From positions 12,220 through 76,219 of the forward strand of contig JBLRXC010000001.1 in the NCBI GenBank assembly GCA_047920975.1: a stretch of 64,000 nt of DNA. The letters run 5' to 3'. This document shows, one piece after another, positions 6,385-26,735 of this stretch (positions within the stretch are counted from its first letter, which is position 1; every line of letters begins with the position of its first letter). Made by a program: the position numbers and the translations under genes. Origin of the DNA: Bacteroidales bacterium. Lineage in GTDB: Bacteria; Bacteroidota; Bacteroidia; Bacteroidales; JAADJA01. Under the pieces are notes generated by a model that worked only from the letters and a program-made list of their open reading frames with translations, searched no databases and was not told the origin of the DNA.

Positions 6385-6392
6385 TATTTTTG
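6385..6392 (+). promoter_or_regulatory. -7 promoter box TATTTTTG for the cytochrome/sulfur operon
   Basis: TAnnTTTG match 62 nt upstream of the ATG at 6455. Confidence 0.35.
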
Positions 6393-6454: not shown

Positions 6455-8041
6455 ATGGAAAATCTGAAAACCATTATCACATTTCTGCTTTCTATCATTG
6501 CTCCATTGGTGATTGTGACGCTGGTTTTGCGCGAACCGCCTGTCGATCATCAAAAGCTTGAAGAATTGCGACAGAAGTATTCTGAGGTGCATCAGCAGGT
6601 TGTTGACCATGGCAAGCATGAAATACTTCAGCAGGATTTTTCAAATCCTCATGCGATCACTGCAGCTTGTTTGTCATGTCATACAGAGCGGGGTGAGGAA
6701 GTTCTCCGCAATGCCCACTGGAACTGGGAGCGTGAGGCTTTTATTTCCGGAAAGGGTGTTACCTATCTCGGAAAGAAAACCCTGATCAATAATTTCTGCA
6801 CAGGTATTGCTTCGAATGAAGGAACCTGTAACCGCTGCCATATTGGCTACGGGTGGAAGGACAAAACCTTCGACTTCACCAATGCCTTCAATATTGACTG
6901 TCTGATCTGTCATGACAATACGCATACCTATGAAAAAGCCAAAGGGGCAGCCGGCTATCCACCGATGGGTGCGGAGGCTCCTGATTACAAATATATTCTG
7001 GCCAATGTGGGCAGGCCTGAGCGGGAGAACTGCGGCTATTGCCATTTTCACAGTGCCGGAGGCAACAATGTAAAGCATGGTGATCTTGAGATGGCATTGC
7101 TTACAGCAGATCGTACCATTGATGTGCACATGGGCGTGGATGGAATGAATTTCAATTGTATTGAATGCCATCCGGCTCAGAACCACCAGATGCTGGGCCG
7201 GTATTATGGTGTCTCCTCCTCTGACACCCAAAGAGCAACTTGTGAACAATGCCACACTTCAGTGCCTCATTCAAACAGTAAACTCAATGAGCACACCATC
7301 AAGGTAGCGTGTCAAACCTGTCATATACCGGTCTATGCAAAAGTGAACCCCACCAAGATGTTTTGGGACTGGTCAACAGCAACACGCCGAAAGGATGGAC
7401 TCCCTTACACAGAGGTCGATGCGGAAGGTGATGAGGTCTATTCCTCCATCAAGGGTGATTTTGACTGGGAACGGTTGGTACAACCGGAGTATTATTGGTT
7501 CAACGGAACTGCTGACCATCACCTGATCACTGAAAAGGTAGACCTGGATAATCTGCCGTTGAAAATAAATACCCTCTTTGGTGAGTACCGCGATCGCAAT
7601 GCTAAAATATACCCTGTAAAAGTGCACCGGGGAAAACAGCCCTATGATACCGAAAACATGAACATTATCCAACCCAAACTTTGGGATGCAGAAGCAAACA
7701 AGGGTGCGTTATGGGTTGATCTCGACTGGGCAGCAGCGCTCAGAACCGGTATGGAGTACCTCGAAATGCCTTACAGCGGAAAATATGATTTTATTCCGAC
7801 AGAAATGTTCCTGCCGGTCAACCATATGGTTTCACTCTCATCTGAATCACTGAACTGCAAGGATTGCCATACCCGCTCAGGCGGGCGGCTGGATAATCTT
7901 CGTGATTTTTACATGCCCGGACGTGATTACAATGCCGCCATCGATACCTTTGGAAGAATTTTGATATGGTTCTCAATTCTGGGGGTAGCTGTGCACGGAT
8001 CCATAAGAATTATGCATTTCAGAAAAACCAGTAAAAACTAA
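6455..8041 (+). CDS. Octaheme c-type cytochrome, resembles the tetrathionate-reductase (Otr) family; TM helices at both termini
   Basis: Eight CxxCH motifs read directly: CLSCH, CNRCH, CLICH, CGYCH, CIECH, CEQCH, CQTCH, CKDCH. The spacing and flanks (AHWNWE, INNFC, GYGW, VKHGDLE, VACQTCHIP, PTKMFWDWS) match my memory of Otr-family proteins. There is an N-terminal anchor IITFLLSIIAPLVIVTLVL and a C-terminal helix ILIWFSILGVAV. Confidence 0.75.
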   Translation: MENLKTIITFLLSIIAPLVIVTLVLREPPVDHQKLEELRQKYSEVHQQVVDHGKHEILQQDFSNPHAITAACLSCHTERGEEVLRNAHWNWEREAFISGKGVTYLGKKTLINNFCTGIASNEGTCNRCHIGYGWKDKTFDFTNAFNIDCLICHDNTHTYEKAKGAAGYPPMGAEAPDYKYILANVGRPERENCGYCHFHSAGGNNVKHGDLEMALLTADRTIDVHMGVDGMNFNCIECHPAQNHQMLGRYYGVSSSDTQRATCEQCHTSVPHSNSKLNEHTIKVACQTCHIPVYAKVNPTKMFWDWSTATRRKDGLPYTEVDAEGDEVYSSIKGDFDWERLVQPEYYWFNGTADHHLITEKVDLDNLPLKINTLFGEYRDRNAKIYPVKVHRGKQPYDTENMNIIQPKLWDAEANKGALWVDLDWAAALRTGMEYLEMPYSGKYDFIPTEMFLPVNHMVSLSSESLNCKDCHTRSGGRLDNLRDFYMPGRDYNAAIDTFGRILIWFSILGVAVHGSIRIMHFRKTSKN

Positions 8042-8058
8042 TTTCAATCTATCTTGGG

Positions 8059-8718
8059 ATGAACAACAGGAAAACAGTAAAAGCATATGTATATCAGCGA
8101 TTTGAAAGATTCTGGCACTGGACACAATCATTCCTGATCATTTTTCTTGCCATCACAGGTTTTGAAATTCATAGCAGCTATTCGCTCTTTGGGTTTGATA
8201 CAGCTGTCGACCTGCATAACAAAGCAGCCTGGGCTTTCATTGTCCTGATCATTTTTGCTTTCTTCTGGCATTTCTCAACCGGTGAATGGAAACAATATAT
8301 ACCTACAACGAAAAACTTAAAAGCACAGACTGAATACTATCTCATGGGTATATTCAGGAATGCTCCCCACCCGACAAAAAAGACCGTTCTCAGCAAACTG
8401 AATCCACTCCAGAGATTGGTTTATTTAGGCCTGAAACTGCTGGTCATACCTGTAATGTTACTCTCAGGACTTCTCTACATGTTTTACCGGTATCCGCAAT
8501 CCGGTGTCATTGAGTCTGCAAACATCGAAAGCCTTGAGATCATTGCACTGGTTCACACATTGGGCGCTTTCCTGCTGGTTGCGTTCCTGGTGGTTCATCT
8601 CTATCTGATCACAACAGGTCATACGGTTACTTCGAATCTGAAGGCCATGATCACCGGGTGGGAAGAACTGGAAACGGATGAGAAGGAGGATTTGAGAACA
8701 GGAATTAACGATTTGTGA
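8059..8718 (+). CDS. Membrane di-heme cytochrome b (Ni/Fe-hydrogenase / PhsC / FdnI-type b subunit)
   Basis: 219 aa with four TM helices and conserved His residues (RFWHWTQ, EIHS, LVHTLG, VVHLY). It starts 17 nt after the octaheme gene. Confidence 0.75.
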   Translation: MNNRKTVKAYVYQRFERFWHWTQSFLIIFLAITGFEIHSSYSLFGFDTAVDLHNKAAWAFIVLIIFAFFWHFSTGEWKQYIPTTKNLKAQTEYYLMGIFRNAPHPTKKTVLSKLNPLQRLVYLGLKLLVIPVMLLSGLLYMFYRYPQSGVIESANIESLEIIALVHTLGAFLLVAFLVVHLYLITTGHTVTSNLKAMITGWEELETDEKEDLRTGINDL

Positions 8719-8840
8719 TTAGAGAATGGTTAAATGAGGAATCAGGATAGGGTTTTGTTCATTAAATTAAAACTAAGTGTTGATCAGGTAACTTTTAAAA
8801 TCATTAAACATTGTTCGTTAATCTTAAATCACCTGGTAAT

Positions 8841-9944
8841 ATGTTTATATTAAAGTTAATAAACAGGAACAACAGAATTGCCAAACTAATCATAGCAGGG
8901 CTTGCAGCAATGGTTTTGATCTCATGCAGCCAAACCAGTGAAGAGGTTAGCTTTGATAAACCCTCAGTGGAAAACACAATGTTATTGCTTGACTGGATAG
9001 AACAAACAGGAGATTACACCAATAGCAGCGAATTTCCATCGATTTTGGACGCCGCAGAGGTCTATGCATGGCGCGATGAAAACATCCTCCTGATTGACCT
9101 CAGGCCTTATGAGCATTACCGGGCCGGGCATATTGAGCATGCTATTAACCTGAGGCCCGGAGAGGTAATGCATTTCTTCCGGAATAAGATAGATCCGCCG
9201 GCATTCAAAAGCATTATATTCACCTGTAACACCGGTATGCTTTCATCTTATGTTACCAGTGTTTTGCGTAACCTCGGTTATAACAACACCTTCGCCATGC
9301 GGTACGGCATGAGTGGTTGGGACCGCTCCATAGCTGAACAATACTGGCTGGCAAATACCGGTGATCAGTTTGAGGGGAAATTAGAGCAGACCAATAATCC
9401 GATGATGCAGGCAGGATTGCTTCCAGCCATTGAAAACAAAGGGAATGATGGTTTTATGCTGGCCGTTTCACAGGCTGAAAAGGTTCTTTCAGAATCCCCT
9501 GACGAGTTTATGATCTCCATAGATGAATTGAGTAAAGATTTGGTTAAATATTACATTGTTTGCTATTGGTCGGATGATAAATGTTCGGAAGCAGGTCATT
9601 TGCCCGGGGCAGTCCGGTATGAACCCAAAAGATCACTGACCCGTGACTCTTTTTTAAATACACTTCCGACAGATCGGCCGATTGTTATTTATTGTAACAG
9701 TGCACATCAGAGCTCTTTTGTTACCGCCTACCTGAGGATGCTCGGCTATGATGCCAGAAGCCTGATCTATGGCGCCAATGGTTTTATTTACAAAACCATG
9801 ATGCGGCTTGAACCGAATCCCAGGAGGACTTTCAAGGAGGGTTTTATTCAGAACCTTCCTCTGGTAACTGAAAAGAACCGTCAGCCGGAACCGGAATCCA
9901 AAGACATTGAAATTGAAAAAACCACCATTCAGGGCGGTTGTTGA
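8841..9944 (+). CDS. Tandem-rhodanese lipoprotein with a C-terminal GGC tail
   Basis: The ATG at 8841 gives a signal peptide plus lipobox (LAAMVLISCSQ). There are two rhodanese domains with active-site loops FTCNTGMLSS and IYCNSAHQSS. The protein ends ...DIEIEKTTIQGGC. Confidence 0.8.
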   Translation: MFILKLINRNNRIAKLIIAGLAAMVLISCSQTSEEVSFDKPSVENTMLLLDWIEQTGDYTNSSEFPSILDAAEVYAWRDENILLIDLRPYEHYRAGHIEHAINLRPGEVMHFFRNKIDPPAFKSIIFTCNTGMLSSYVTSVLRNLGYNNTFAMRYGMSGWDRSIAEQYWLANTGDQFEGKLEQTNNPMMQAGLLPAIENKGNDGFMLAVSQAEKVLSESPDEFMISIDELSKDLVKYYIVCYWSDDKCSEAGHLPGAVRYEPKRSLTRDSFLNTLPTDRPIVIYCNSAHQSSFVTAYLRMLGYDARSLIYGANGFIYKTMMRLEPNPRRTFKEGFIQNLPLVTEKNRQPEPESKDIEIEKTTIQGGC

Positions 9945-9959
9945 CAAACTAAATTGATT

Positions 9960-10484
9960 ATGATGGAAAACAGAGTGAAACCTTACATGAACTCCTACCT
10001 GGCTGGTTTTCTGCTGGGTCTGGTACTGCTCTCTGCATTTTTTGTTACCGGTCGTGGTCTCGGTGCCAGCGGAGCTGCCAAAAGTGTTGTTATCAGCACG
10101 GTTGCCGGTACTGCGCCTGAATATGCTGCTGCCAATCCGTTCTATGGGGAGTATTTCCGCGAAGGTCCCGGACCCATGAAAAACTGGCTGGTTTATCTGA
10201 CGCTTGGTGTATTGGCAGGAGCTTTCTTTTCGGGAGCTATGTCAGGACGTATGGGGTTTAAAATTGAGAAGGGTCCCCGGATAAGCTCCGGATACAGGTT
10301 GATGTTTGCTACCCTGGGCGGCCTCCTCTTTGGATTGGGTGCCCAATTCGGGAGAGGCTGTACCAGTGGTGCGGCCCTCACAGGCATGGCGATTCTTTCC
10401 ACTGCCGGGTTTGTCACAATGATGGCTATCTTCGGTTCCGGCTATGTCATCGCATGGTTTTTCAGAAAACTCTGGCTGAATTAA
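9960..10484 (+). CDS. YeeE/YedE-family sulfur-transport membrane protein, half-size subunit 1
   Basis: About 174 aa, polytopic, with the GRGCTSGAALTG motif typical of YeeE/YedE (Sulf_transp). It starts 15 nt after the rhodanese gene. Confidence 0.8.
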   Translation: MMENRVKPYMNSYLAGFLLGLVLLSAFFVTGRGLGASGAAKSVVISTVAGTAPEYAAANPFYGEYFREGPGPMKNWLVYLTLGVLAGAFFSGAMSGRMGFKIEKGPRISSGYRLMFATLGGLLFGLGAQFGRGCTSGAALTGMAILSTAGFVTMMAIFGSGYVIAWFFRKLWLN

Positions 10485-10486
10485 AA

Positions 10487-10492
10487 AGGAGG
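10487..10492 (+). promoter_or_regulatory. Strong Shine-Dalgarno AGGAGG, 6 nt before the ATG at 10499
   Basis: Read directly (ttaaaaAGGAGGtaaactATG). I saw no comparable SD upstream of the other gene starts I inspected. Confidence 0.5.
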
Positions 10493-10498
10493 TAAACT

Positions 10499-11719
10499 AT
10501 GGGACCACTGATTCCACAAGGTTTTGTCAACCCCGATCTCAATCTTTTCTTTGCCTTCGTCATCGGATTGGGATTTGGTTACGTGCTTGAACAGGCAGGT
10601 TTTTCTTCTTCACGCAAACTGGCGGGTGTCTTTTATGGTTATGATTTTGTAGTGCTTCGTGTATTCTTCACCGCAGCAATCACTGCAATGACAGGGCTTC
10701 TGATGTTCAGCTACCTGGGCTGGATAGATTATACCATGCTTTACATCAACCCGACATTTCTCTGGTCAGCCATCGTGGGCGGGGTGATCATGGGATTTGG
10801 TTTTATTCTGGGCGGTTTTTGTCCGGGAACGAGCCTTGTAGGTGCGGTCATTGGTAAGGTGGATGCCATGTTTTTCGTCCTGGGCATGTTCATCGGTATC
10901 TTCCTGTTTGGAGCGTTCTATCAGGCATTTGAGCCGATCTATCTTGGAAATAACCTGGGAGGGATTTTCGTATTCGATTCACTGGGCATGAGCCGTGAAT
11001 GGTTTGCCATTATACTGATTGTGGTTGCCCTCACTGCATTTGCCATCACTCAGCGGATTGAGGATCGTGTGAACAAAATCCCTGCGGATGTGCGCTCTTC
11101 GAGGCCCTCTTATGCGGTACCGGCATTGCTGATCTTAGCAGCCGGCACAATCTTGATCATCTTGCCGCCTCAGCCACGTAGTAAGTGGTATGAAAACGCT
11201 GCTGCTTCCATTCTCTATGAAGTAGCGGAAGGTAAACATCGTGTTTGTACCGATGAGGTGGCTTACGGAATCATCAATGGTAAGAACTATCCAATGGTGC
11301 TGGTGGATGTGAGAGAACAGGAGGATTTTCAGACGTTCGCACTGCCAGGAGCACTCAATGTGCCGGCTGACCAGGTGCTGGACCGTCGCTATGCACCGGT
11401 ATTTGAATCAAAAAATACCAAAGTCGTGCTCTACTCCTTTTCCAACACAGTGGCTGAAGAGGCATGGGTACTCCTTCGCCGATCGGGTTACGAAAATATC
11501 TTTGTGATGGATGGGGGATTGAATGATTTTTTCCATAATCTATTTGTGGAAGAAAGCGTGGTCAGTTCACCCGACTGTCTGCTGATGCACCAGGCAAGAT
11601 TCAGGGAAAAGGCCAGAGAATATTTTAAATCCGGATCAGCAGTTCAGGAGAAGACCAGATTACCAAATCCGGTCATTCAAATCATTGAAGTGGAAATGCC
11701 ATCAGGTGGCGGTTGTTAA
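10499..11719 (+). CDS. YeeE/YedE half-size subunit 2 fused to a C-terminal rhodanese-like domain (Ser at the catalytic position) with a GGC tail
   Basis: 406 aa. N-terminal polytopic part with GGFCPGTSLVGA. C-terminal domain VLVDVREQEDFQTFALPGALNVP...VVLYSFSNTVAEEA...MDGGLNDF. The protein ends ...IQIIEVEMPSGGGC. Confidence 0.8.
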   Translation: MGPLIPQGFVNPDLNLFFAFVIGLGFGYVLEQAGFSSSRKLAGVFYGYDFVVLRVFFTAAITAMTGLLMFSYLGWIDYTMLYINPTFLWSAIVGGVIMGFGFILGGFCPGTSLVGAVIGKVDAMFFVLGMFIGIFLFGAFYQAFEPIYLGNNLGGIFVFDSLGMSREWFAIILIVVALTAFAITQRIEDRVNKIPADVRSSRPSYAVPALLILAAGTILIILPPQPRSKWYENAAASILYEVAEGKHRVCTDEVAYGIINGKNYPMVLVDVREQEDFQTFALPGALNVPADQVLDRRYAPVFESKNTKVVLYSFSNTVAEEAWVLLRRSGYENIFVMDGGLNDFFHNLFVEESVVSSPDCLLMHQARFREKAREYFKSGSAVQEKTRLPNPVIQIIEVEMPSGGGC

Positions 11720-11737
11720 TCATTTAAACCAGAGATC

Positions 11738-12349
11738 ATGAATCACTCACAATATAAAATATTAAACACAGCAGCGGTTTTCTCACTCGGAGTCGTTCTC
11801 CTGGTGATGGTGATCCAATGGATCGCCGCTCCGGCATACCGGATCGGCAATCATGACCTGCTTGAAAAAACCGGTCGGGAAGAAAGATGGATTTTGCCCC
11901 ATGATCTGCACCGGATCGTCAGCGAAGGGCAAATGGAACAATATCTCCTGATTGACCTGAGACAAACAGAGGCATTTAATTCAGGAACTCTTCCTGGTGC
12001 AGTTAACATTCCCTTTGAGAACCTCCTTGACAGTAAATATCAGAGAATTCTCAGGGCAGATAAACCGATGATGTTGTTTTCAGGCAATGAGTCACTGACT
12101 GCAGTTGCAGGCATGATGCTCTATTCCAAAGGTTTTGACCAGGTTTATTTGCTGGCCAATGATTATGTCTTTGTGAAGGAAAATGTGCTTGATGGTTATG
12201 TTCCTGCCTCTGCCATGTCAAAAGGCGAAAAAGCAAGGTTTGATTACAACCGCTATTTTGAAACCAGCTCAAAAAGTAGTACAAAGACTTCGAAACAGCA
12301 GCCTGTGATCATAGAAACAGAAGTGATTCAGGCAGCAGGGGGATGCTGA
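11738..12349 (+). CDS. Membrane-anchored single rhodanese-like domain protein (Ser at the catalytic position) with a GGC tail
   Basis: 203 aa. N-terminal anchor AAVFSLGVVLLVMVIQWIAA. Rhodanese fold signature LLIDLRQTEAFNSGTLPGAVNIP...MMLFSGNESLTAVAG. The protein ends ...VIIETEVIQAAGGC. Confidence 0.7.
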   Translation: MNHSQYKILNTAAVFSLGVVLLVMVIQWIAAPAYRIGNHDLLEKTGREERWILPHDLHRIVSEGQMEQYLLIDLRQTEAFNSGTLPGAVNIPFENLLDSKYQRILRADKPMMLFSGNESLTAVAGMMLYSKGFDQVYLLANDYVFVKENVLDGYVPASAMSKGEKARFDYNRYFETSSKSSTKTSKQQPVIIETEVIQAAGGC

Positions 12350-12513: not shown

Positions 12514-14709
12514 TCAATCCAATTCAATGTTGGTCAGTTCACCGGTCAGTTCATACGCATATTCAGGGTATTCATAGACTGGTACACGCGGCTCTGTCTC
12601 GCCGATGCTGTAGCCCCAGATACTTTCATATTCCCTGGCATTTTCGCCTATCTCTTCAAGTTGACGGATATATTCGCTCACAGATTTGGATTCGATGATG
12701 ATCACCTTTCCCATTTTGTGGATGATCGGACTATGACTCCTTGTCTGATCGTGATCGAATTGCAGAACCCTCCTTCCATATCGGGTGATGCCTATAACGC
12801 GATAGGTCAGACTCTTACCTACGCCGGGGAGATTGATTACATTCCGGTCGGTCGCGATAAAAGGAAGATTTTGCTGTTGCATCATCTGCAGCAAACTCTT
12901 ATCCATCTGACCGGGATCAAGGGAAAAGTCCCGGATCATATCCACAAGTTTTTCAGGCAGGGTTCCGAAAGCCTTCTCCTCAATTTGCTCCTGCACAGCT
13001 CTTGCATTTGTGGCAAAATTGAAATAGTTCTCCATGTAACCCTTTACGGAGAAGGTATAGTAAGGAAGTATTCCAATTTCATTGAGAACCTGTCGCAATT
13101 TGGCGTTATGCCCCCTTCGGGAGGCTGCCGTTGTGAAAACGTGCTGATTGGTAATGATCCAGCCGGAATTCAGAAATGCACTGATGGCTTGTTTAACTTC
13201 CGGTGTGATCTCCATGGGCGATTCAAAATGGGTCTGAATTACGAATTGCTGAATACCCTCGTCAATCGCCTTTTCTCTGAAAGTTTTTAGAATCTTGATC
13301 AGTTCGGGTGTGATTCGCTGGGGTAGATAGGCCGGCAGCCGGGTTCCCAATCTTACGCGGACAATTTCAGCAAGTTTCTTACCGGGTGGAAGTGTCTCAT
13401 TCTGTTTTCTCTTTCGGACAGCCATCCTGAGAACAGCATCCAGCATTTTTTCCATGGATTGGTTGGAACTCATCAATGCATCACCACCGGTAATCAGGAT
13501 ATCACGCAGCTGTGCATCTTTCTCCCAGTATTCCATGATCTTTTCCAGTTGGCTCTCCCATGATCCGTCAGGCTTTAACTTATCGAGATTGAAATTGAGG
13601 TTCCCTCTCTGAAAGTCATACATTCGCTGACATGATGCACACAATCCGCCGCAGGCACGTCCCATGGTTGCCGGAATCAGTATGGCCACTTCAGGATAAC
13701 GGCGGTGAACGCTGTGATGTGTTGGTAAAACCCAGCCGGCTGCATTGGGTTTGCCGGGTTCAACCTGATCTTCCTTTTCCCAGGCAACAATGTGGCCAAA
13801 CTCGTCTACCAGTTGCTGGCTGTAAACCACGTAATACCGTATGGCCAGGTCGGCACCGATGGCAAAATAAGGAACCCTGACATGCAGGAGGGAGAGATAA
13901 TAGGGGTTGACGAAAAAGGGAATGCCTGCCTTTTCTGCCGCATAAAGGATTTTCATGGTATCCGGGTCAAGGGAATTACCCAACAGTTCATTCAGCAATT
14001 CGGGTGAGCGCACGGCAAAACTCAGGTGGAAGCGATAATCATCCCACCATTCCAGCATCTGAAGAAATTTCTGCTCATGCGATAGTTTGGGAGCAAATGA
14101 AAAACGGGTGCTGCTGATCTTCCCTTCATCCATTTTTTCGATCAGGATGTTGATGATCCGCTCTCTGTTTTCTTCCCTGAGTTTTACGATTCTCGGGTCT
14201 AAGCCGCCCGGGAACCGTTCCATCCATTCAAGCAGGTTTTCGCGCAACGGCATGCTCCTTTTGAAGGTTCCCGCAAACTGACGGAAAAGATAAAGCATAT
14301 CCTCAAAGAAATAAGGTTTTGCGCCACCGGTGCCAAAATTAACGGCTAACCATATCAGTTTAATGGGGTTACTGATGGCAATTTCTCCCCGCAGATTTAA
14401 ATCTTCATATTCCCTTCCGGCATTGTCAATATAATCCAGCAGCCGGATGGCTGCATAATCCTGCCACGAAAGCTCTTCAAACGCTTCCCTTCCTTTGCGG
14501 GTTCCTTTATAGAATCCAAAGGCGACAGGGCGCTCTGTAAGGTAGCTCAAAACCCAGTTTCGTACACCAATCAATGCTTCGGTTTCATTGCGCGCATGGC
14601 GCATGATCTCCTCAAGTTTTGGATTTTCCCTGAGCAGTTCCTTCAGCAGTTTGTGCGATTTTACAGTGATGGCAATCTTGTCAAGTTTTTGATTTTCGTT
14701 CATTTTCAA
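12514..14709 (-). CDS. KamA-family radical SAM protein (lysine-2,3-aminomutase-like) with a ~340-aa N-terminal extension
   Basis: 731 aa. CxxxCxxC cluster CGGLCASC, ITGGDALM, and LPGVGKS with the candidate PLP lysine. The core begins around residue 340. Confidence 0.8.
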   Translation of the reverse strand: MKMNENQKLDKIAITVKSHKLLKELLRENPKLEEIMRHARNETEALIGVRNWVLSYLTERPVAFGFYKGTRKGREAFEELSWQDYAAIRLLDYIDNAGREYEDLNLRGEIAISNPIKLIWLAVNFGTGGAKPYFFEDMLYLFRQFAGTFKRSMPLRENLLEWMERFPGGLDPRIVKLREENRERIINILIEKMDEGKISSTRFSFAPKLSHEQKFLQMLEWWDDYRFHLSFAVRSPELLNELLGNSLDPDTMKILYAAEKAGIPFFVNPYYLSLLHVRVPYFAIGADLAIRYYVVYSQQLVDEFGHIVAWEKEDQVEPGKPNAAGWVLPTHHSVHRRYPEVAILIPATMGRACGGLCASCQRMYDFQRGNLNFNLDKLKPDGSWESQLEKIMEYWEKDAQLRDILITGGDALMSSNQSMEKMLDAVLRMAVRKRKQNETLPPGKKLAEIVRVRLGTRLPAYLPQRITPELIKILKTFREKAIDEGIQQFVIQTHFESPMEITPEVKQAISAFLNSGWIITNQHVFTTAASRRGHNAKLRQVLNEIGILPYYTFSVKGYMENYFNFATNARAVQEQIEEKAFGTLPEKLVDMIRDFSLDPGQMDKSLLQMMQQQNLPFIATDRNVINLPGVGKSLTYRVIGITRYGRRVLQFDHDQTRSHSPIIHKMGKVIIIESKSVSEYIRQLEEIGENAREYESIWGYSIGETEPRVPVYEYPEYAYELTGELTNIELD

Positions 14710-18831: not shown

Positions 18832-20403
18832 CTACTTCCCCCATAATCCCCTCAGTTCCTCCTCAATCTTGTCACGGAACTTTTTCAGGTCGGTTTTTTT
18901 GAGCTTTTTCACTCTTTTTTCGAGGATTTCAAACTCGGTTTTCATCTTTTTTGTCATATTGGGGATCACACGGTCGCGCACCTCATCGGAGACGTTTTGA
19001 ATGGCATGTGCCAGTTCATCGAGGTCAACCTTTTTGACCAGTTCTTTAATTTTTGCATCCGACATCCGGGCAATGTCTTCGAGCGTGTAATCTTTAACAT
19101 CATCCCACTTCTCTTTGGCCTTCTTCCGTCCTTTTTTGGCAGTTTCTCCGGCTTTCTCTTTCATATCCTCTGCAAATGCTTTGGCTTTTTCATGGAATGA
19201 ACCTACGCCGGAAGCGGCGCAGTGTTCTTCCACCCGGGAAAGGAAGTCCGAAAGCACATTCATGTAGTTGATAAAGGCTTCGTATGGCGACGGGTAGGGG
19301 TTGAAGTAACGGTGCACATCGCCATCGGAGAACCACTTGGTCGACATATAATAGAAATGGTCACTGGCCTGAAGATAGCTCCAGTCTTTCAGGATGGCAG
19401 GATCAGTGCAGCCGGCTATCCGCTGCTCAACCTGGTAGAGCTTGTCGAACGCTTCGTTCTGCATCTCGTTACCGAGCCAGGCCGTAACATCGCGCTCGGC
19501 ATCCGCCCAGGAGATTGGGTAGGGGACGTTGATTCCGCTCCTGGGTTTGAGTTTTTGTATCAGCTCTTTTGGTTTGGTGAACTCAAACCCGGCAATTTTC
19601 AATACATGGGCAGGGAGTGCCTCCATGAAATCAAATATCCCGGTGTCGGCCCACTGGTGCTCACCAAAGGTTTCATAGTCAACGAACAGATTGACCACCT
19701 CCTGCTCATGGTCAATCTCTTTGAGCCACGAAGCAAAACGTTCGGCTGTCAAAGGCCACTCACTCCAGTCCTTGTTTGAGAATCTGAATGCTATATCGTC
19801 GCTCAGCCGGAAATTTTTTAACAGCAACTTCAGGTGCGGATTACAGTCGGCATGGTAGAGAAAGTTGGGGCTTCTCCAGCCCAGCACATGTTTTGCACCT
19901 TCGGTGAGCATCCCTTTGTATCCCATATCATACACCCATTCACCGATGGTGTCGGAATAGATCAACTCTGTGTTGCGGAATGTAACCGGTTTTTGCCCGA
20001 ACAGGGCTTCTGTTTTTTCACTGTGTTGCTCCACCTGCCGCCTGAATTCATCTTTATTTTTAAGGGAAACAAGCGAATGGGAATAGGTCTCAGCAAGGAA
20101 TTCCACGTTGCCTGTTTTCGCCAGATCCTGAAAACTTTTCAAGACCTCTGGTGCATATTTTTCAAACTGATCCAATGCCGTTCCAGATATGGAGTAGGCA
20201 ATATTGAATTTTTTGCCATGTTTTTTGATCAGTTTGAGCATCAGTTCATTGGCTGGCAGGTAACATTTATTTGCAATCCGTTGCATGATGGAGCGGTTCA
20301 GGTAGTCGTCGTAGTAATAATGATCTACACCCATATCAAAAAACCTGTAGGTTCGGAGTCTGAAAGGTTGGTGCACCTGGAAATAAAAACAGATTGATCT
20401 CAT
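18832..20403 (-). CDS. GH57 alpha-amylase-family glycoside hydrolase with a C-terminal Lys-rich linker and a FliG_C / MgtE_N-like helical domain
   Basis: 523 aa. GH57 N-terminus ICFYFQVHQPFRLR, catalytic-region motifs VDYETFGEH and WADAERD. The tail at residues ~441-520 resembles the FliG C-terminal domain. Confidence 0.85.
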   Translation of the reverse strand: MRSICFYFQVHQPFRLRTYRFFDMGVDHYYYDDYLNRSIMQRIANKCYLPANELMLKLIKKHGKKFNIAYSISGTALDQFEKYAPEVLKSFQDLAKTGNVEFLAETYSHSLVSLKNKDEFRRQVEQHSEKTEALFGQKPVTFRNTELIYSDTIGEWVYDMGYKGMLTEGAKHVLGWRSPNFLYHADCNPHLKLLLKNFRLSDDIAFRFSNKDWSEWPLTAERFASWLKEIDHEQEVVNLFVDYETFGEHQWADTGIFDFMEALPAHVLKIAGFEFTKPKELIQKLKPRSGINVPYPISWADAERDVTAWLGNEMQNEAFDKLYQVEQRIAGCTDPAILKDWSYLQASDHFYYMSTKWFSDGDVHRYFNPYPSPYEAFINYMNVLSDFLSRVEEHCAASGVGSFHEKAKAFAEDMKEKAGETAKKGRKKAKEKWDDVKDYTLEDIARMSDAKIKELVKKVDLDELAHAIQNVSDEVRDRVIPNMTKKMKTEFEILEKRVKKLKKTDLKKFRDKIEEELRGLWGK

Positions 20404-20441
20404 ATTGCTTTGTGTTCTAATTTCTTTATTCTCTTTATGTC

Positions 20442-20483
20442 GTCCCCGAGGGACTTATATCAACAAATTTCGTCCTTCCGGAC
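20442..20483. repeat. Two short hairpins of the TCGTCC(C)-N3/4-(G)GGAC family
   Basis: gtccc-cga-gggac at 20442..20454 and gtcc-ttcc-ggac at 20472..20483, in the leader region of the GH57 gene. Confidence 0.6.
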
Positions 20484-20584
20484 ATATACTAATAAATATC
20501 ATCATATTCCCTTATTTCATTTTCATCCCATCAAAACCATTGGTCACCCACCAAAAGCTATAGACCAACAGTAAAAAGCCAAAG

Positions 20585-20609
20585 GCTAACAGCTAACAGC
20601 TAATAGCTG
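20585..20609. repeat. 7-nt tandem repeat gctaaca x3.5
   Basis: gctaaca gctaaca gctaata gctg, read directly just downstream of the GT4 stop. Confidence 0.7.
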
Positions 20610-20614
20610 TCATT

Positions 20615-21898
20615 CTATCTCACCGCATCCCTGTAAACCTTCATGATCTTCACGGCTGCATATTCCCACTTGAGACTATCCACTTCATCTTTTCCATATT
20701 TGATAAATGTATCAGAGAGTGCGTGATAGTGCAGGAGTCCCCAGATGGCATCAGCAGTTCCGTGTACATCCCAAAAATCAACCTTGATGGCATGTTTGAG
20801 AACCTCTGCCACACCAGATTGCCTGGATACGATTACCGGTACGTTGGTGCGCATGGCTTCCAGCGGTACAAGCCCAAATGGTTCCGATACCGAAGGCATC
20901 ACGAACACATCACTCAAAGCAAACATCCGGTCAACATCTTCACCCTGTAAAAAACCTGTAAAGTGGAACCTGTCGGCGATCTTCAACTGGGCCACCCGGC
21001 GGATCATTTTGTGGAGCATATCTCCCGAGCCGGCCATCACAAAGCGTATATTCCTGTCACGTTTTAAAACAAGGTGGGCAGTTTCGATGAAATATTCCGG
21101 ACCTTTCTGGAAGGTGATCCTTCCCAGGAAGGTGACAACCTTCTCTTTCAGCACTTTTTTTATCTGCACTGCTTCCGTTCTGTCAACCGGTTCAATGGCG
21201 TTATGAACGGTGAACACTTTGGAGGCATCAATTCCATGCTTTTCAATCACGGTCCTGCGGGTGAGATTACTCACTGCAATAACCCTGTCGGCTGCTGTCA
21301 TGCCGGCTTTTTCAATGTCAAAGACAATCGAATTTACGTTTTCACCCGTCCTGTCGAACTCAGTGGCATGGATATGCACCACCAGTGGTTTCCCACTGGC
21401 TCTTTGAGCCGCAATGCCGGCATAATAAGTCAGCCAGTCGTGTGCATGGATTACGTCAAATTCATATTGCGTAGCGATGGTTGCGGCAACCAGTGCATAG
21501 CGTGAAACTTCTTCCATCAGGTCGGGACCGTATTTCCCTGAGAATTCGTATTTTCTGGAAAAGACAGAGCGTTTGCGCTGCTCCATTTCTGTTTTCGATT
21601 CTGTAAGGATCTTTTCAAATTCTTCAGGATCCAGGTAGGGAACAAGGTTTGAACCTACCTCCATATAAGTGAAGTTTTGGGTAAACCGGAAAAAATCAGA
21701 ATCCTCAATATTCACTACTACATCACTGGCATTCACAATTCTGACAGCTCGCTGATCCTCGTCTCCGTATGCTTTGGGAACCACAAAAAGGACTTCGGCG
21801 CCCTGCTTCAGTAGTCCCTTTGTCATACCGTAGCAGGCTGTTCCTAGCCCTCCTGTGATGTGAGGAGGAAATTCCCACCCGAACATCAATACTTTCAT
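20615..21898 (-). CDS. GT4-type glycosyltransferase, alpha-glucan (glycogen) synthase-like
   Basis: 427 aa. MKVLMFGWEFPPHITGGLGTACYG N-terminus and E-x7-E region PSVSEPFGLVPLEAM. It lies in an operon between GDE and GH57. Confidence 0.8.
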   Translation of the reverse strand: MKVLMFGWEFPPHITGGLGTACYGMTKGLLKQGAEVLFVVPKAYGDEDQRAVRIVNASDVVVNIEDSDFFRFTQNFTYMEVGSNLVPYLDPEEFEKILTESKTEMEQRKRSVFSRKYEFSGKYGPDLMEEVSRYALVAATIATQYEFDVIHAHDWLTYYAGIAAQRASGKPLVVHIHATEFDRTGENVNSIVFDIEKAGMTAADRVIAVSNLTRRTVIEKHGIDASKVFTVHNAIEPVDRTEAVQIKKVLKEKVVTFLGRITFQKGPEYFIETAHLVLKRDRNIRFVMAGSGDMLHKMIRRVAQLKIADRFHFTGFLQGEDVDRMFALSDVFVMPSVSEPFGLVPLEAMRTNVPVIVSRQSGVAEVLKHAIKVDFWDVHGTADAIWGLLHYHALSDTFIKYGKDEVDSLKWEYAAVKIMKVYRDAVR

Positions 21899-23859
21899 CC
21901 GTTTTGGTTGGTGTTATGGTCGTATTGGTTTAACAAATGATGAATTCTCAGGAGTTCAGCCACACTCCAGGCCTGTGAAATAGCACCTTTCCCGGTATAG
22001 GGAGGGTTTCCGTAATACAATTCTGAAATGGTGCCAATGCCTCCCTCTGTGATCTCTTCTTCAAAATCATGGAACAGCCGCTTAATCAGAGAGAGCCCTG
22101 AGCGACCGTGTATCTTCAGATATCCCTCAGCAAAATGTCCCAGTAGCCAGGGAAAGGCAGTTCCCTGGTGATAAGCCACGTCACGGCAGGTTATATCACC
22201 ACCATAAGAACCCATATAATCAGGACTTTTGGGTGTAAGTGTCCGGATTCCCCTTGGTGTCAGTAATTCCTGTTGCACATGGTGAAGTACAAGGTATTTG
22301 ATCTCATCGGTTACCGGAGAATAGGGCATTGAAGCAACCATCAACTGGTTGGGGCGAAGGGTCATGTCTTTGAAATCTCCTCTCACAACATCAGCAAGGT
22401 AGCCCGATTGAACATCCCAAAACGTATCCGTAAAACTGAATTCAATCTTCCCGGCGATGATTCCCCAATATTCAGCCTTTTTCTTTTTCCCTTTTTTATG
22501 AAGGATCTCTGCATAAAACCTGACGGCATTGTACCAAAGGGCATTTACTTCCACTGCCAGACCATGGCGGTCTACTACAGGTTTTCCATCTATCCGTGAG
22601 TTCATCCATGTAAGTGTGTCGTTTTCATCGCCTGCCCACAGCAACCCATTATCCTGCATGAAGATACGGAATGATGTTCCCTTTTCGAACCTGGTGAGGA
22701 TATGCTCCATTGTTTTCCCGTGTTTTTTCCAAATGGTATCATAATCGCCGGTGAAAATAGTAAATTGCTGAAGTGCCCAGAAAAACCACAGGGGTGTATC
22801 CACCGAATTATAAACGAACTGATTTCCTATGCGGTCATTTGGGAAAAAAACATCATCCATCATACTCACCATGAAGTCAACGGAGTTAAGGAACCGCTCA
22901 TGATTTCCTTCGGGAAGTGTTAAGCCGGGGAGGGCTATAAAAGTATCCCGGCCATGAACATTGAACCAGTGATATCCGGCAATCATCTGAATCTGTCCAT
23001 TGCGTTGTATAAAAAACTGACGGGCAGAATTCCGGAGGCAATTAACAAAATTATCTCTTGGAATGCGACTTTTTATATTCCGGTTAAACAAGGTATTTAA
23101 TCGCTCCGACCCAACCTCTTTCAATCCTGCTGAGAAAAGGACAGAATCTCCTTTTTTTATGTCAATTTCAAAGTATCCCGGCGTAAACAGGTCTTCCAGA
23201 TATTCGTAACCTCTGGTCTTTTCTTTTGTATATTCAACATTGTAGTACCAGTCAGGTTGATGCTGGTAAACCGGTTTTCTCGAAAACTGTAGAAAAAGTG
23301 GCTCATAGGGCTCGTACATCTTCAAACGGATACCATTTTTTACAGGCGTATAGCCGGTATTCGCATCGGAATTATACTTACTGAGGGCATGAACGCTTCT
23401 GAATGCTGCAAGCGGCCTGAATCTAAGTTTTGTGGGTGAATTGGCTTCCAAAAGGGAATACCGGATAAGAATCCTGTCCTCTTCATCTGTAAAAACTATT
23501 TCACTCGAAAGAACGACTCCTCCCACACGGTAAATGATTTTCGGTACAGGATCTGCAAAAAACTCCCTGGCATATTTATGACCACCAGGTTCATACTGGT
23601 TATCGGAATATTTGTGAAGCCCGAGGTTAAACGCTTCATTCTGCTGAATGATCGTTACATCAAGACTGGAAAGAAACACATGATGGTGATGGTCTATTTG
23701 CGGTTGAAGTGAGACCAGCAATCCATGATATTTACGTGTATTACATCCAATAATGGACGTACTCGAATAAGAACCTGCATAGTTGGCCCGCAAAATTTCT
23801 CTGGTCAGTGAGAATTCCAGATTGATCAATTGCTTCTTGTCAAATGTAATATAACCCAT
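21895..23859 (-). CDS. Glycogen debranching enzyme (GDE_N + amylo-alpha-1,6-glucosidase, archaeal/bacterial type)
   Basis: 654 aa. N-terminus REILRANYAGSYSSTSIIGCNTRKYHGLLV. (alpha/alpha)6 C-terminal part with GYHWFNVHGRDTFIALPGL and ISELYYGNPP. It overlaps the GT4 gene by 4 nt. Confidence 0.85.
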   Translation of the reverse strand: MGYITFDKKQLINLEFSLTREILRANYAGSYSSTSIIGCNTRKYHGLLVSLQPQIDHHHHVFLSSLDVTIIQQNEAFNLGLHKYSDNQYEPGGHKYAREFFADPVPKIIYRVGGVVLSSEIVFTDEEDRILIRYSLLEANSPTKLRFRPLAAFRSVHALSKYNSDANTGYTPVKNGIRLKMYEPYEPLFLQFSRKPVYQHQPDWYYNVEYTKEKTRGYEYLEDLFTPGYFEIDIKKGDSVLFSAGLKEVGSERLNTLFNRNIKSRIPRDNFVNCLRNSARQFFIQRNGQIQMIAGYHWFNVHGRDTFIALPGLTLPEGNHERFLNSVDFMVSMMDDVFFPNDRIGNQFVYNSVDTPLWFFWALQQFTIFTGDYDTIWKKHGKTMEHILTRFEKGTSFRIFMQDNGLLWAGDENDTLTWMNSRIDGKPVVDRHGLAVEVNALWYNAVRFYAEILHKKGKKKKAEYWGIIAGKIEFSFTDTFWDVQSGYLADVVRGDFKDMTLRPNQLMVASMPYSPVTDEIKYLVLHHVQQELLTPRGIRTLTPKSPDYMGSYGGDITCRDVAYHQGTAFPWLLGHFAEGYLKIHGRSGLSLIKRLFHDFEEEITEGGIGTISELYYGNPPYTGKGAISQAWSVAELLRIHHLLNQYDHNTNQNG

Positions 23860-24246: not shown

Positions 24247-24328
24247 GTCTTCAATTTTTTAAATTCAATTACATGGCATTTAAGGTTCGGTTATACTTAA
24301 CTCTTAGAGAAAGGATACAGTTTTTATA

Positions 24329-24336
24329 TATTTTTG
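24329..24336 (+). promoter_or_regulatory. -7 promoter box TATTTTTG for the TonB-receptor operon
   Basis: TAnnTTTG match 35 nt upstream of the ATG at 24372. Confidence 0.35.
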
Positions 24337-24371
24337 TTGGCAAATGTGATTTTTTTTCAAAAACAAGGGAT

Positions 24372-26735
24372 ATGAAAAGGTTGGCCGCGATTGCCGGGCT
24401 TACATTTTTTAGTCTGTCAGTATTTACACAGAGCCTGGGGCTAATTTCAGGTATTGTGACCGACGGATCAACTGAGCAGCCCTTATCCGGAGTACTGGTC
24501 AGGCTGAATGATGGAAAAAATACCATTACAACTGACCAAAACGGATATTTTGCATTTGAGGATCTGCCCGAAGGTAACCATCTTTTTGGCTTCAGTTGTG
24601 CCGGTTATTCAGAACAAAGCATGACAGTGAGCCTGGCTGCCGGTGGAACAGCAGGGGTTACCATGGTAATGTTACCCGCGGTCATTGATTTGGAGGGGAT
24701 CACTGTCGAAGAGTCAAGGATCATACCTGATATGATCAGCGAACTTCCTTATATCCTGGTAAAAATTAGCCGTGATCAGATTTATGAAACCTCAGTGCGG
24801 GATGTGGGAGATTTGCTGCGTTCTTCTCTGAATATCAGCGGGATAAGAAAGGGGGGCGCAAACATTGACCCGGTGGTGAGAGGCTTTAAATCCAGTCAGT
24901 TAAACATAAACCTTAATCAGGGTGTCAAGGTGGAGGGTGGTTGTCCGAACCGAATGGATCCGGCGACCGCTCACATTGAGCCTGAAGATATAAGAGCCGT
25001 TGAAGTAATCAAGGGGCCTTATTCCCTGCGCTATGGTCCTGCCATGGGTGCAGTGGTCCATGTGCAAACATTTGATATTGATGACGGAAATGTGCCATTT
25101 ATACGCATCAATGCCATGAAGGGCTATGAAACGAACTGGAATGGCCATCGCGAATATCTGTCAGTCGCTGCAGGAAACAGGACAGGTTTTCTCAATTTCT
25201 CAGGAAGCCGGAAAGATTACGGAAATTACAAGGATGGATATGGAAACCAGGTCTTTTCCTCCTTCATGAAGACCAATTTCAGAGGGCAGGTCGGCATAAG
25301 GCCATGGAAGCATCACTTAATGCAGTTCACAGCGGAGGATCTCAAAGGAAGAGATGTCAGATTTCCTTCCCTGCCTATGGATGAAAGAAGCGACGACACA
25401 AAGCTGTTCTCTCTGAATTATCAGATAAGACCCGTAACCGGATTTTTTGAGTTTCTTACCCTCCATGCTTACCGGTCAGATGTTCTTCATGAAATGGACA
25501 ACAAAGAGAGGCCGGTATCAGATACAGTAGTCGCTATAACCATTGTGGATGCATTGAACAGGGGCGCAAGATTCGAAGGCGGTATTAACATGGGAAAGAG
25601 AAAAATTATTGCCGGATTTGATCTTGAAGACATACATAAAGATGGTGACCGGACCAAGTATTTTATCCGGCAACCCGGGTTGTCGGTTCATGTTGAAACA
25701 ATCTGGAACAATGCACGCATTACAAATGCAGGATTTTTTGTCCAGTTTACGGCTGATTTTGGATCGCTTGACATGGTTGCTTCGGCCCGGATTGATCTGA
25801 ACCAGGCCACCTCTGATGAAGTGGTCGTTAAAAATCCAATGCAGGCCGAGATCTACCGTTATTCGACTGATTCAATCAGCTCCGGCTATGCAAATTTCAG
25901 CATCAGCGCCGGCGCAACACAGAAATTGTCAGAAAGTCTGTCCGTATCATTTGCCATGGGTCGCGGTACCCGAAGCCCTGATATGACTGAACGGTTTATC
26001 GTCCTGCTGCCGATTGGATATGACCGGTTTGACTATCTGGGTGATCCTAAGCTGAAACCGGAGACAAACAACCAGGTCGACCTGACACTGAAGTTTCTGA
26101 AAAGTCAATGGGGGGCATTCCAGCTCAATGGATTTTTCTCACTTGTGACGGATTATATAACCGGCAAAAGAGTTCCCCCAGCGGTTCAGAAACCGTTAAC
26201 GGCTGGTGTTTTGGGTGTCAAACAATTTTGCAACGCCGGAACCGCGCTTCTGCATGGTTTTGAATTTTCCTATACAACTTCCCCTCTGAAACATCTGGGT
26301 GTTGATCTAAATGCTGCACTTACCCGTGGGACATTAAAGGAGGCGTTTCAGTACGTGCTCAATGATGCCGGGCAGATAGTTGATGACCGGCTGATTGATC
26401 ATGATCCGCTTACTGAGATTCCTCCATTTGAAGCAACAATGGGTGTTTATTACAAATACTTTCACAACAGATTGATCCCAAGGATCAACCTGCGGTCAGT
26501 AGCAAAACAGAATCACGTTTCAGAAGCACAATATGAACCAACAACACCCGGCTTTTTTCTTGCAGGAGTGTCGGTTCAATACAAACACAATACCCATCTG
26601 AATATAACTGCAGGGGTGAACAATCTCTTTAACAAAGGATATTTTGAGCACCTCAACAGGGCAATCATCGGGCAAATTGGTAATTTAACCGAACCCGGAA
26701 GGTCTTTTTATATTAACCTGTTTTTTAAAATTTAA
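24372..26735 (+). CDS. TonB-dependent outer-membrane receptor with an N-terminal CarboxypepD_reg domain
   Basis: The internal ATG at 24372 gives the signal peptide MKRLAAIAGLTFFSLSVFTQS. Then GIVTDGSTEQPLSGVLVRL (CarboxypepD_reg), plug motifs (ISGIRKGGANIDPVVRGF, VEVIKGPYSLRYG) and a terminal ...YINLFFKI. Confidence 0.85.
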   Translation: MKRLAAIAGLTFFSLSVFTQSLGLISGIVTDGSTEQPLSGVLVRLNDGKNTITTDQNGYFAFEDLPEGNHLFGFSCAGYSEQSMTVSLAAGGTAGVTMVMLPAVIDLEGITVEESRIIPDMISELPYILVKISRDQIYETSVRDVGDLLRSSLNISGIRKGGANIDPVVRGFKSSQLNINLNQGVKVEGGCPNRMDPATAHIEPEDIRAVEVIKGPYSLRYGPAMGAVVHVQTFDIDDGNVPFIRINAMKGYETNWNGHREYLSVAAGNRTGFLNFSGSRKDYGNYKDGYGNQVFSSFMKTNFRGQVGIRPWKHHLMQFTAEDLKGRDVRFPSLPMDERSDDTKLFSLNYQIRPVTGFFEFLTLHAYRSDVLHEMDNKERPVSDTVVAITIVDALNRGARFEGGINMGKRKIIAGFDLEDIHKDGDRTKYFIRQPGLSVHVETIWNNARITNAGFFVQFTADFGSLDMVASARIDLNQATSDEVVVKNPMQAEIYRYSTDSISSGYANFSISAGATQKLSESLSVSFAMGRGTRSPDMTERFIVLLPIGYDRFDYLGDPKLKPETNNQVDLTLKFLKSQWGAFQLNGFFSLVTDYITGKRVPPAVQKPLTAGVLGVKQFCNAGTALLHGFEFSYTTSPLKHLGVDLNAALTRGTLKEAFQYVLNDAGQIVDDRLIDHDPLTEIPPFEATMGVYYKYFHNRLIPRINLRSVAKQNHVSEAQYEPTTPGFFLAGVSVQYKHNTHLNITAGVNNLFNKGYFEHLNRAIIGQIGNLTEPGRSFYINLFFKI

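Follow-up and report, generated by a model that had tools for sequence, protein, structure and literature searches.

The octaheme cytochrome c of Shewanella oneidensis (octaheme tetrathionate reductase, Otr; structure 1SP3) is a soluble protein of ~460 amino acids (aa), and ever since the structure was determined, the role that Otr plays in the cell has been unsettled. Here we describe a cluster of six genes encoding a membrane-anchored member of this family, located at positions 6455-12349 of a 64,000-nucleotide (nt) stretch of DNA from a Bacteroidales bacterium (GenBank assembly GCA_047920975.1, contig JBLRXC010000001.1, positions 12,220 to 76,219 of the forward strand), hereafter called the window. 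The most informative feature of the cluster is an invariant C-terminal Gly-Gly-Cys (GGC) on its rhodanese-containing products, which an earlier note made from the same sequence did not mention. For one branch of the Otr family, the anchored one, the conserved gene context offers a concrete and testable answer to the question of its role; this branch occurs in numerous anaerobic Bacteroidota, in Ignavibacteria and in related bacteria of sediments, digesters and aquifers.

The catalytic domain of the window Otr is homologous to that of the Shewanella enzyme, with which it shares eight CxxCH motifs and the residues at positions 56 and 64 of 1SP3. It differs in being anchored at both ends, with a His-x3-Arg motif in the C-terminal helix, and in its surroundings, as Otr of the window type is always followed by a cytochrome b and a GGC-tailed rhodanese whereas the relatives of Shewanella Otr are without such neighbours. 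In an Ignavibacteria genome a pair of Otr and cytochrome b561 has been read as a tetrathionate or nitrite reductase (PMC7509429), and in Dethiobacter clusters of multiheme and rhodanese genes have been proposed to serve sulfur respiration (PMC10376724).

PsrABC with Sud from Wolinella succinogenes resembles the proposed system in being a quinol-linked periplasmic reductase supplied by rhodanese-fold proteins of the periplasm, in which a cysteine binds sulfane sulfur, but it is a molybdoenzyme with an NrfD membrane subunit where the window encodes a multiheme cytochrome and a PF01292 protein. Sud uses the cysteine in its rhodanese active site, not a C-terminal tail cysteine. A model for Desulfurivibrio dismutans combines Psr with periplasmic rhodanese lipoproteins, a porin and YeeE (PMC12142623). 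The extHIJKLMNOPQS cluster of Geobacter sulfurreducens encodes the rhodanese-like lipoprotein ExtH, the porin ExtI and the pentaheme selenoprotein MccSep; work of August 2026 showed MccSep to be a polysulfide reductase that S0 respiration requires (PMC13510729, PMC5877670). MccSep is comparable as a multiheme cytochrome c that cleaves S-S bonds, with a chalcogen residue beside the active-site heme and a rhodanese lipoprotein encoded alongside, and an ExtI-like porin is common to the ext cluster and the Carboxylicivirga-type variant loci described below. Its architecture is nevertheless not homologous (five hemes, a His/Cys-ligated heme and a selenocysteine residue), and the Geobacter MccSep paper makes no mention of cytochrome b, YeeE or GGC tails.

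SoxYZ is a covalent sulfur carrier with Gly-Gly-Cys on a flexible C-terminal arm (canonically VTIGGC). SoxY members combine the SoxY fold with a C-terminal GGCGG swinging arm, a combination absent from the window proteins, which have neither the SoxY nor the SoxZ fold, end in a tail of 30-50 residues with Cys as the last one, and include one carrier fused to a channel. Hand-off of sulfur from SoxY to the cysteines of the YeeE-like SoxT1A has been proposed (PMC11582611), and in lucinid symbionts otr adjoins divergent soxY and soxZ genes (PMC11237559). With YeeE/YeeD (TsuA/TsuB) and PmpA/PmpB the window shares the PF04143 domain, the division into C- and N-terminal halves and the equivalents of Cys91 and Cys293, but it is without a YeeD/TusA partner, has Ser at the position of Cys22, and carries an N-terminal half with two extra transmembrane (TM) helices and a predicted periplasmic rhodanese domain.

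The earlier note did not recognise the module as a described system, and we likewise found no description of the six-gene cluster in the searchable literature or in curated families. From sequence, conservation and analogy, it would be a periplasmic sulfur reductase that is linked to quinol and supplied by carriers of the rhodanese type. What sets it apart is the Otr-cytochrome b catalytic core, the split YeeE channel and the carriers with Gly-Gly-Cys tails, a family as yet without a name. The six genes are co-directional, and all open reading frames (ORFs) were found where the earlier note had placed them, as follows:

6455..8041, forward strand: Otr-family octaheme cytochrome c (528 aa; TIGR04315 550.6 bits, 1SP3 426 bits)
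8059..8718, forward strand: four-helix cytochrome b, PF01292, of the PhsC/FdnI/HydC type, the presumed quinol-oxidising membrane partner
8811..9944, forward strand: tandem-rhodanese lipoprotein, predicted periplasmic (two PF00581 stretches, lipobox)
9954..10484, forward strand: half-size YeeE/YedE, C-terminal half, PmpA-like (PF04143 profile positions 176-308)
10499..11719, forward strand: fusion of a YeeE N-terminal half, PmpB-like, with a rhodanese-fold domain (PF04143 positions 10-155 plus PF00581)
11738..12349, forward strand: rhodanese-fold protein anchored by a single TM helix (PF00581 behind the helix)
9933..9941, forward strand: codons of the terminal Gly-Gly-Cys of the lipoprotein, TGA next
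11708..11716, forward strand: codons of the terminal Gly-Gly-Cys of the fusion protein, TAA next
12338..12346, forward strand: codons of the terminal Gly-Gly-Cys of the anchored rhodanese, TGA next

Profile searches with each protein upheld every domain assignment of that note: an octaheme protein of the Otr family and not of HAO, ONR or MccA (on the TIGR04315 and 1SP3 matches), a cytochrome b of the PhsC/FdnI type, a tandem-rhodanese lipoprotein and a membrane-anchored rhodanese (on PF00581), and two half-size YeeE/YedE proteins that are complementary PF04143 halves, the second fused to a rhodanese. The six products match no families beyond these, so that the absence of TusA/YeeD and DsrE from the operon also stands.

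All three rhodanese-containing proteins end exactly in Gly-Gly-Cys (TIQGGC, SGGGC and AAGGC), and they are the only ORFs in the 64 kilobases (kb) of the window that end in this way. Across loci the terminal GGC is essentially invariant, and the 30-50 residues that precede it vary freely. The lipoprotein has an L-I-S-C lipobox with Cys39 and two PF00581 domains with the catalytic loops CNTGMLS (Cys139) and CNSAHQS (Cys295), followed by a tail of ~50 residues up to the GGC; among 41 sequences the conservation of its cysteines is 100% for Cys39, 83% for Cys139, 93% for Cys295 and 100% for Cys377. It is alone in the cluster in combining the rhodanese fold with the loop Cys of a catalytic rhodanese. 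The fused and the anchored domains carry Ser in its place, so that the catalytic Cys is gone, and the terminal one retained, in two of the four rhodanese domains. The only conserved cysteines of the fusion protein (59 sequences) are Cys108 of the YeeE motif and the terminal Cys406, and the sole Cys of the anchored rhodanese is the terminal Cys203, conserved in 97% of 40 sequences.

When the anchored rhodanese was searched against 1.84 billion representatives clustered at 50% identity, 816 matches were obtained at E <= 0.001. Among the best 150 of these, 102 are 150-260 aa long; 93 of the 102 end in GGC, and 50 of the 93 are free of Cys apart from the terminal one. No NCBIfam model reaches its own cut-off on the GGC-tailed rhodanese-fold proteins, and a literature search found no paper pairing a rhodanese with such a terminal motif. 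A well-populated protein family without a name is hereby defined, consisting of membrane-anchored rhodanese folds with no catalytic Cys and an invariant terminal Gly-Gly-Cys, which also occurs beside Psr-like enzymes. A search for a SoxY domain in the tailed proteins gave none at E up to 0.01, PF00581 being the only match; to judge from their sequences they may function like SoxY, and they are not SoxY members. In the AlphaFold2 (AF2) model of the fusion protein the rhodanese domain has a predicted local distance difference test score (pLDDT) of 85-92 and tail residues 387-406 fall below 50, which in the model fits a flexible arm; Foldseek with this model returned rhodanese folds only. Two other explanations of the tail were rejected: selenocysteine read-through past the GGC, as the stop codons are TAA (165), TGA (56) and TAG (36) and all three follow Cys, and a CysO/Mec-type Gly-Gly-Cys adduct, GlyGly-CTERM or other sorting signal, as the domain is a predicted periplasmic rhodanese fold, Cys is the last residue and no processing enzyme is co-conserved.

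A search with the window Otr found thousands of relatives, and an alignment-based scan with one genome per species confirmed at least 587 stretches, with 80 loci kept. ORFs were called at the loci kept and searched with the six window proteins, and loci with 5 kb or more on the downstream side of Otr, 60 in number, were treated as informative. All 60 have the triad of anchored Otr, cytochrome b and one or more GGC-tailed rhodaneses, with cytochrome b directly after Otr at every one (60/60). All six genes occur in the same order at 36 loci, the lipoprotein alone is missing from the five-gene clusters of two, and 14 hold a four-gene core of Otr, cytochrome b, YeeE C-half and YeeE N-half-rhodanese fusion, the hosts of which are Ignavibacteria, Melioribacteraceae, Kapaibacterium, LCP-89 and others. 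Eight loci, including cultured Carboxylicivirga, hold a third variant, with a gene for a small rhodanese lipoprotein behind those for Otr and cytochrome b.

Otr identity across the loci with the same gene order is only 49-78%. The closest genome loci among the matches listed belong to Lentimicrobiaceae (Otr 78% identity); an identical Otr gene was found on a Logan contig, and the annotation of an NCBI Bacteroidales metagenome-assembled genome (MAG) includes a fusion protein identical to that of the window. Most hosts are MAGs of anaerobic Bacteroidales and Ignavibacteria. The recurrence of one gene order in dozens of genomes at such identities, between flanks that are not conserved, places the arrangement far beyond chance. 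The co-occurrence of the six genes, for which the earlier note had proposed a survey across Bacteroidota, is confirmed by the 36 of 60 loci in order, and neither of the two computational findings that it had named as speaking against its reading, an octaheme protein closer to HAO, ONR or MccA and a lack of co-conservation, came true.

The small-rhodanese variant was seen at 12 loci in total, four of which have too little flank to join the 60. At all 12, a homologue of the small rhodanese lipoprotein, 167-201 aa long and ending in GGC, lies directly after cytochrome b; the CKKGxRS loop is kept in 9 of the 12, and nine loci have an ExtI/Porin_O_P-like porin. Carboxylicivirga (L072) and one MAG (L050) have a tandem rhodanese and a further rhodanese gene after the small lipoprotein. 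Their clusters (L072 12223-15761, L050 12399-16984) run through Otr, cytochrome b, small rhodanese lipoprotein, tandem rhodanese, Porin_O_P/ExtI-like porin and further rhodanese, with a Crp/Fnr-type regulator-like gene upstream, and the variant occurs in cultured isolates, among them Carboxylicivirga sediminis JR1 and Carboxylicivirga sp. RSCT41.

In the reverse test, metagenome contigs were scanned with an alignment of the fusion protein, which yielded 56 loci with the fused form and 23 with an unfused form. The fused form has cytochrome b at all 42 loci with at least 1.4 kb upstream and Otr at all 31 with at least 3 kb upstream; no Psr was found at any of the 56. In the unfused form a YeeE C-half and a YeeE N-half of 196 aa are accompanied by one or two anchored rhodaneses that end in GGC, and no Otr was found at its 23 loci; no locus mixes the partners of both forms. 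Directly upstream of the unfused form, all three PsrABC/PhsABC-like subunits are encoded at each of the 13 loci whose flank was long enough to show them, and unfused-form loci with shorter flanks have the nearer Psr subunits only, or none. The 13 loci are the following:

PsrABC/PhsABC-like loci: L107, L110, L111, L117, L121, L127, L130, L135, L139, L143, L146, L148, L155

At L121 (3703-9997) the PhsA model gives the catalytic subunit 472 bits (cut-off 694), and its two partner subunits belong to Fer4_11 and NrfD. At one unfused locus there are, in addition, a Crp-type regulator, tandem-rhodanese lipoproteins and the porin that the Carboxylicivirga variant also has. Since the same set stands behind the Otr-cytochrome b genes and behind PsrABC-like genes, which encode two unrelated enzymes, YeeE and the GGC-rhodaneses look, as far as gene sequences tell, like an accessory that can move from one quinol-linked sulfur reductase of the periplasm to another. 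Four loci (L011 4010-15753, L050, L057 and L066) have a Psr-like and an Otr cluster side by side, each with its own YeeE/GGC-rhodanese genes, so that the two enzymes are not simple alternatives. These paired clusters resemble a larger sulfur island.

The placement of the tails follows from homology and charge. In its crystal structure YeeE is N-out and C-in with inverted halves (PMC7449682), and half-size PmpB aligns to the N-half and PmpA to the C-half of YeeE (PMC11582611). The AF2 model of the fusion protein has six long helices before the rhodanese domain, and six helices after an N-out start put this domain on the same side as the N-terminus. Mean counts of lysine plus arginine (K+R) over 59 homologues of the fusion protein are 0.0, 0.0 and 1.3 in the predicted outer segments and 1.9 and 3.0 in the inner ones. 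The YeeE C-half is predicted to be N-in and C-in, the unfused rhodanese homologues have an anchor of their own behind a strongly basic N-terminus (N-in), and the lipobox marks the lipoprotein as exported. Otr must face the periplasm for heme attachment, and both of its terminal tails are basic (K+R counts 1.8 and 4.1). All three GGC tails are predicted to share a compartment, the periplasm, with the heme domain of Otr. The rhodanese domains had been suggested to take the place of TusA/YeeD; being predicted periplasmic, they cannot receive cytoplasmic cargo.

The TIGR04315 match of Otr exceeds the curated NCBIfam cut-off of 375 bits and spans model positions 1-440 of 440, and the 1SP3 alignment covers residues 56-480. 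Its eight CxxCH motifs (at C72, C125, C149, C193, C235, C263, C286 and C468) are 100% conserved among 80 sequences. Lys107 (codon 6773-6775) and Cys115 (codon 6797-6799), which align with residues 56 and 64 of 1SP3, are invariant in the same set; we take residue 56 to be the Lys axial ligand of the active-site heme and residue 64 to be a neighbouring Cys. The protein has both an N-terminal TM anchor and a C-terminal TM helix, and His514 and Arg518 in the latter (His-x3-Arg, window 7994-8008) are also invariant in the 80 sequences. Among the neighbours of the soluble Shewanella-type Otr at four loci there are no cytochrome b, rhodanese, YeeE or GGC-ending ORFs. The association with carriers is hence specific to the anchored branch, and these four loci rule it out as a property of the whole Otr family. 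At one of the soluble loci, in Shewanella algae (L082 3814-7401), a monoheme cytochrome c and a DUF3373 protein precede Otr, and a divergent Psr/Phs-like molybdoenzyme operon adjoins it, a context unlike that of the anchored branch.

The cytochrome b matches PF01292 with 105.2 bits (gathering cut-off 30.1) and has four hydrophobic segments. Among the NCBIfam models it matches best that of PhsC, the cytochrome b subunit of thiosulfate reductase (NF011582), at 106.2 bits, below the cut-off of 204; by sequence it is a relative of PhsC and not an equivalog. Histidines 20, 38, 53, 71, 104, 166 and 180 are conserved, with His20, 53, 166 and 180 at 99-100%, making seven where two hemes need four. Together with His514 and Arg518 of Otr, the surplus histidines make an inter-subunit heme or quinone site possible.

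The two YeeE genes match PF04143 with 60.5 and 53.4 bits (cut-off 27). The C-half has a single invariant Cys136 in GRGCTSGA, corresponding to the third conserved YeeE Cys (Cys293 in PMC11582611), and the N-half in the fusion has an invariant Cys108 in GGFCPGTS and two additional TM helices before the rhodanese domain; the channel cysteines equivalent to Cys91 and Cys293 are thus retained. The thiosulfate transporter TsuA/YeeE models (NF041049, NF052577) give 25-30 bits against cut-offs of 400-645, and with its YeeE split over two genes, where that type is a single nine-TM polypeptide, and no TusA-like partner among the six products the window system falls outside the TsuA/YeeE type. Matches of the YeeE halves to YedE selenium-transporter models are weak, far below cut-offs and no better than those to the thiosulfate models. 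For the half transporter the AF2 model is of poor quality (pLDDT 66) and gives helix counts, no independent sidedness.

We consider the chances about even that the cluster encodes a self-contained, periplasm-facing sulfur redox module, in which electrons run from menaquinol through cytochrome b to Otr, S-S bonds are cleaved on the GGC arms and sulfur is handed on to YeeE. By homology, menaquinol would be oxidised by the four-helix cytochrome b and its electrons would pass along the eight Otr hemes to the site of the Lys-ligated heme and the invariant Cys115, where Otr would reductively cleave an S-S bond in a sulfur species held on the terminal thiol of a GGC arm. The likely substrate would be sulfane or polysulfide sulfur (a persulfide or polysulfide), a thiosulfonate formed from tetrathionate and a thiol, or tetrathionate itself. 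To judge from their anatomy, the rhodanese-fold proteins may be tethered swinging-arm carriers analogous to SoxY and Sud, and the catalytic rhodanese cysteines of the lipoprotein would take sulfane sulfur from thiosulfate or polysulfide and load the arms. The arm tethered to YeeE would sit at the periplasmic mouth of the split channel and pass sulfur to Cys136 and then to Cys108 for import. We infer the identity of the substrate, the direction of electron flow and the docking of the arms to Otr and to YeeE. The four-gene core always has both Otr and YeeE, from which reduction and the channel appear to be functionally coupled, as opposed to serving respiration alone or uptake alone.

More tentatively, and at somewhat less than even probability, we propose that the natural substrate of the anchored Otr branch is sulfur bound covalently to the terminal Cys of the GGC-tailed rhodanese-fold proteins, not a free anion. 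The tailed proteins would then be a previously unrecognised class of periplasmic sulfur carriers, convergent with SoxY, that shuttle between a sulfurtransferase, a quinol-driven reductase (Otr-cytochrome b or Psr-like) and a split YeeE. If true, this would constitute a carrier-based reductive counterpart of the Sox pathway and revise the view of how periplasmic sulfur reduction and sulfur import are coupled, and it would improve the annotation of metagenomes, in which the genes are now independently called 'tetrathionate reductase', 'thiosulfate transporter' and 'sulfurtransferase'.

Several points weigh against the proposed redox module. The sidedness rests on homology and charge bias, with an AF2 model of the half transporter of poor quality, and the redox direction is presumed from the use of menaquinone by these bacteria. 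The soluble Otr of the Shewanella type needs no carriers to reduce free tetrathionate, and no carrier genes adjoin its own, so that dependence on carriers is not family-wide. The adjoining Psr-like and Otr clusters may argue for different substrates over interchangeable enzymes. A purely respiratory role would leave the YeeE channel in the four-gene core unexplained, and functional statements about the clade draw on sequence, conservation and analogy.

The earlier note had proposed a respiratory tetrathionate reductase making thiosulfate, which YeeE would import while the rhodanese domains replace TusA/YeeD. Membership in the Otr family agrees with this scheme, and the reduction of tetrathionate by menaquinol is strongly favourable. 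The side-by-side Psr/Phs-like and Otr clusters at four loci could form a chain from tetrathionate through thiosulfate to sulfide, and characterised YeeE imports thiosulfate (PMC7449682, PMC11073785). Tetrathionate as the specific substrate nevertheless has the family name as its sole support and is not upheld; an identical YeeE/GGC module also serves Psr/Phs-like enzymes, the product of which is not thiosulfate. As the rhodanese domains are predicted to lie on the wrong side for cytoplasmic cargo, two of them are without the catalytic Cys, and the invariant terminal Cys is left unexplained, we regard the scheme as unlikely. We give still less credence to an oxidative module, in which Otr, like SoxXA or TsdA, would couple thiosulfate or sulfide to the carrier Cys, pass electrons to the quinone pool and leave the sulfur to be imported via YeeE for cytoplasmic use. 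The SoxY-like GGC arm would suit it, as would the otr-soxY-soxZ arrangement of sulfur-oxidising symbionts (PMC11237559) and the model of import from SoxYZ to SoxT (PMC11582611). The hosts, however, are mostly anaerobic Bacteroidales and Ignavibacteria MAGs, the accessory set is common to Psr/Phs-type reductases, and no SoxB, Dsr or Hdr genes were seen among the products looked at around the loci. Oxidation of thiosulfate with menaquinone as the acceptor is, moreover, uphill.

A module for selenium or tellurium oxyanions, with selenite reduction and selenium uptake through a YedE-like channel, seems a shade less probable again. It could draw on the matches of the YeeE halves to the YedE models, on the resemblance of the porin at variant loci to ExtI of a selenite/tellurite operon, on the oxidation of methyl viologen with selenite by MccSep and on the selenoprotein member listed for TIGR04315 (PMC13188914); those YedE matches, however, are no better than the ones to thiosulfate models, the linkage to Psr/Phs-like enzymes points to sulfur, and no selenium-utilisation genes were found among the window genes scanned, a subset of large ORFs. 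Shewanella Otr also reduces nitrite and hydroxylamine in vitro (as cited in PMC11237559 and PMC7509429). That the window Otr is such a reductase and the sulfur genes mere neighbours is nonetheless highly improbable, as its linkage to GGC-tailed rhodanese at 60 of 60 loci, and that of fused YeeE to Otr at 31 of 31, are incompatible with a chance neighbourhood.

Two descriptions of the operon structure needed revision. The intergenic gaps, given before as 14-122 nt, measure 9-92 nt, and 122 nt is obtained only with the first ATG of the lipoprotein as its start. The cluster had also been placed behind a single TAnnTTTG box; this motif occurs at chance level in the window (51 copies against 49.6 expected), and further copies lie on the forward strand inside the cluster at 7945, 8948 and 11497. 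The copy at 6385 is the sole one in the intergenic region upstream of Otr, and given the chance-level count it is no more than a candidate promoter:

6385..6392, forward strand: TATTTTTG, match to the Bacteroidota -7 box TAnnTTTG, candidate promoter only, 63 nt upstream of the Otr start

Scans for generic promoters and terminators gave counts at chance level, and an alignment of the ~300 nt that precede Otr in the window and in three relatives, made in search of a conserved operator, showed the start codon alone to be conserved. Genes on the opposite strand bound the cluster on both sides, with an ATP-binding cassette (ABC) transporter upstream and a 731-aa ORF downstream. Neither was retained as a member of the system: the 731-aa ORF occurs at none of ~160 loci, and the ABC transporter has a close match only on a same-species contig and weak homologues at two other loci. 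The 731-aa ORF (12514-14709, reverse strand) has a CxxxCxxC motif (CGGLCASCQR) reminiscent of radical S-adenosylmethionine (SAM) aminomutases and no Pfam match at E <= 1e-5.

Further gene sets were noted elsewhere in the window. An arsenic-resistance-like set at 45650-50211 comprises an ArsP-type permease, a low-molecular-weight phosphatase/ArsC-like protein, a SAM methyltransferase and an SBF/ACR3-type transporter. At 24273-29774 a TonB-dependent receptor, MbnP, an immunoglobulin-like surface protein and a MauG-type di-heme cytochrome c peroxidase are encoded in a row; the set resembles copper-acquisition genes of the MbnPH type and includes a second predicted c-type cytochrome gene of the window. 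At 40190-44431 on the reverse strand, a fusion protein of 1413 aa joins a glycogen synthase-like domain to DUF3417 and a glycogen phosphorylase domain, and further glycogen genes at 18832-23859 encode GH57, a glycosyltransferase and a debranching enzyme.

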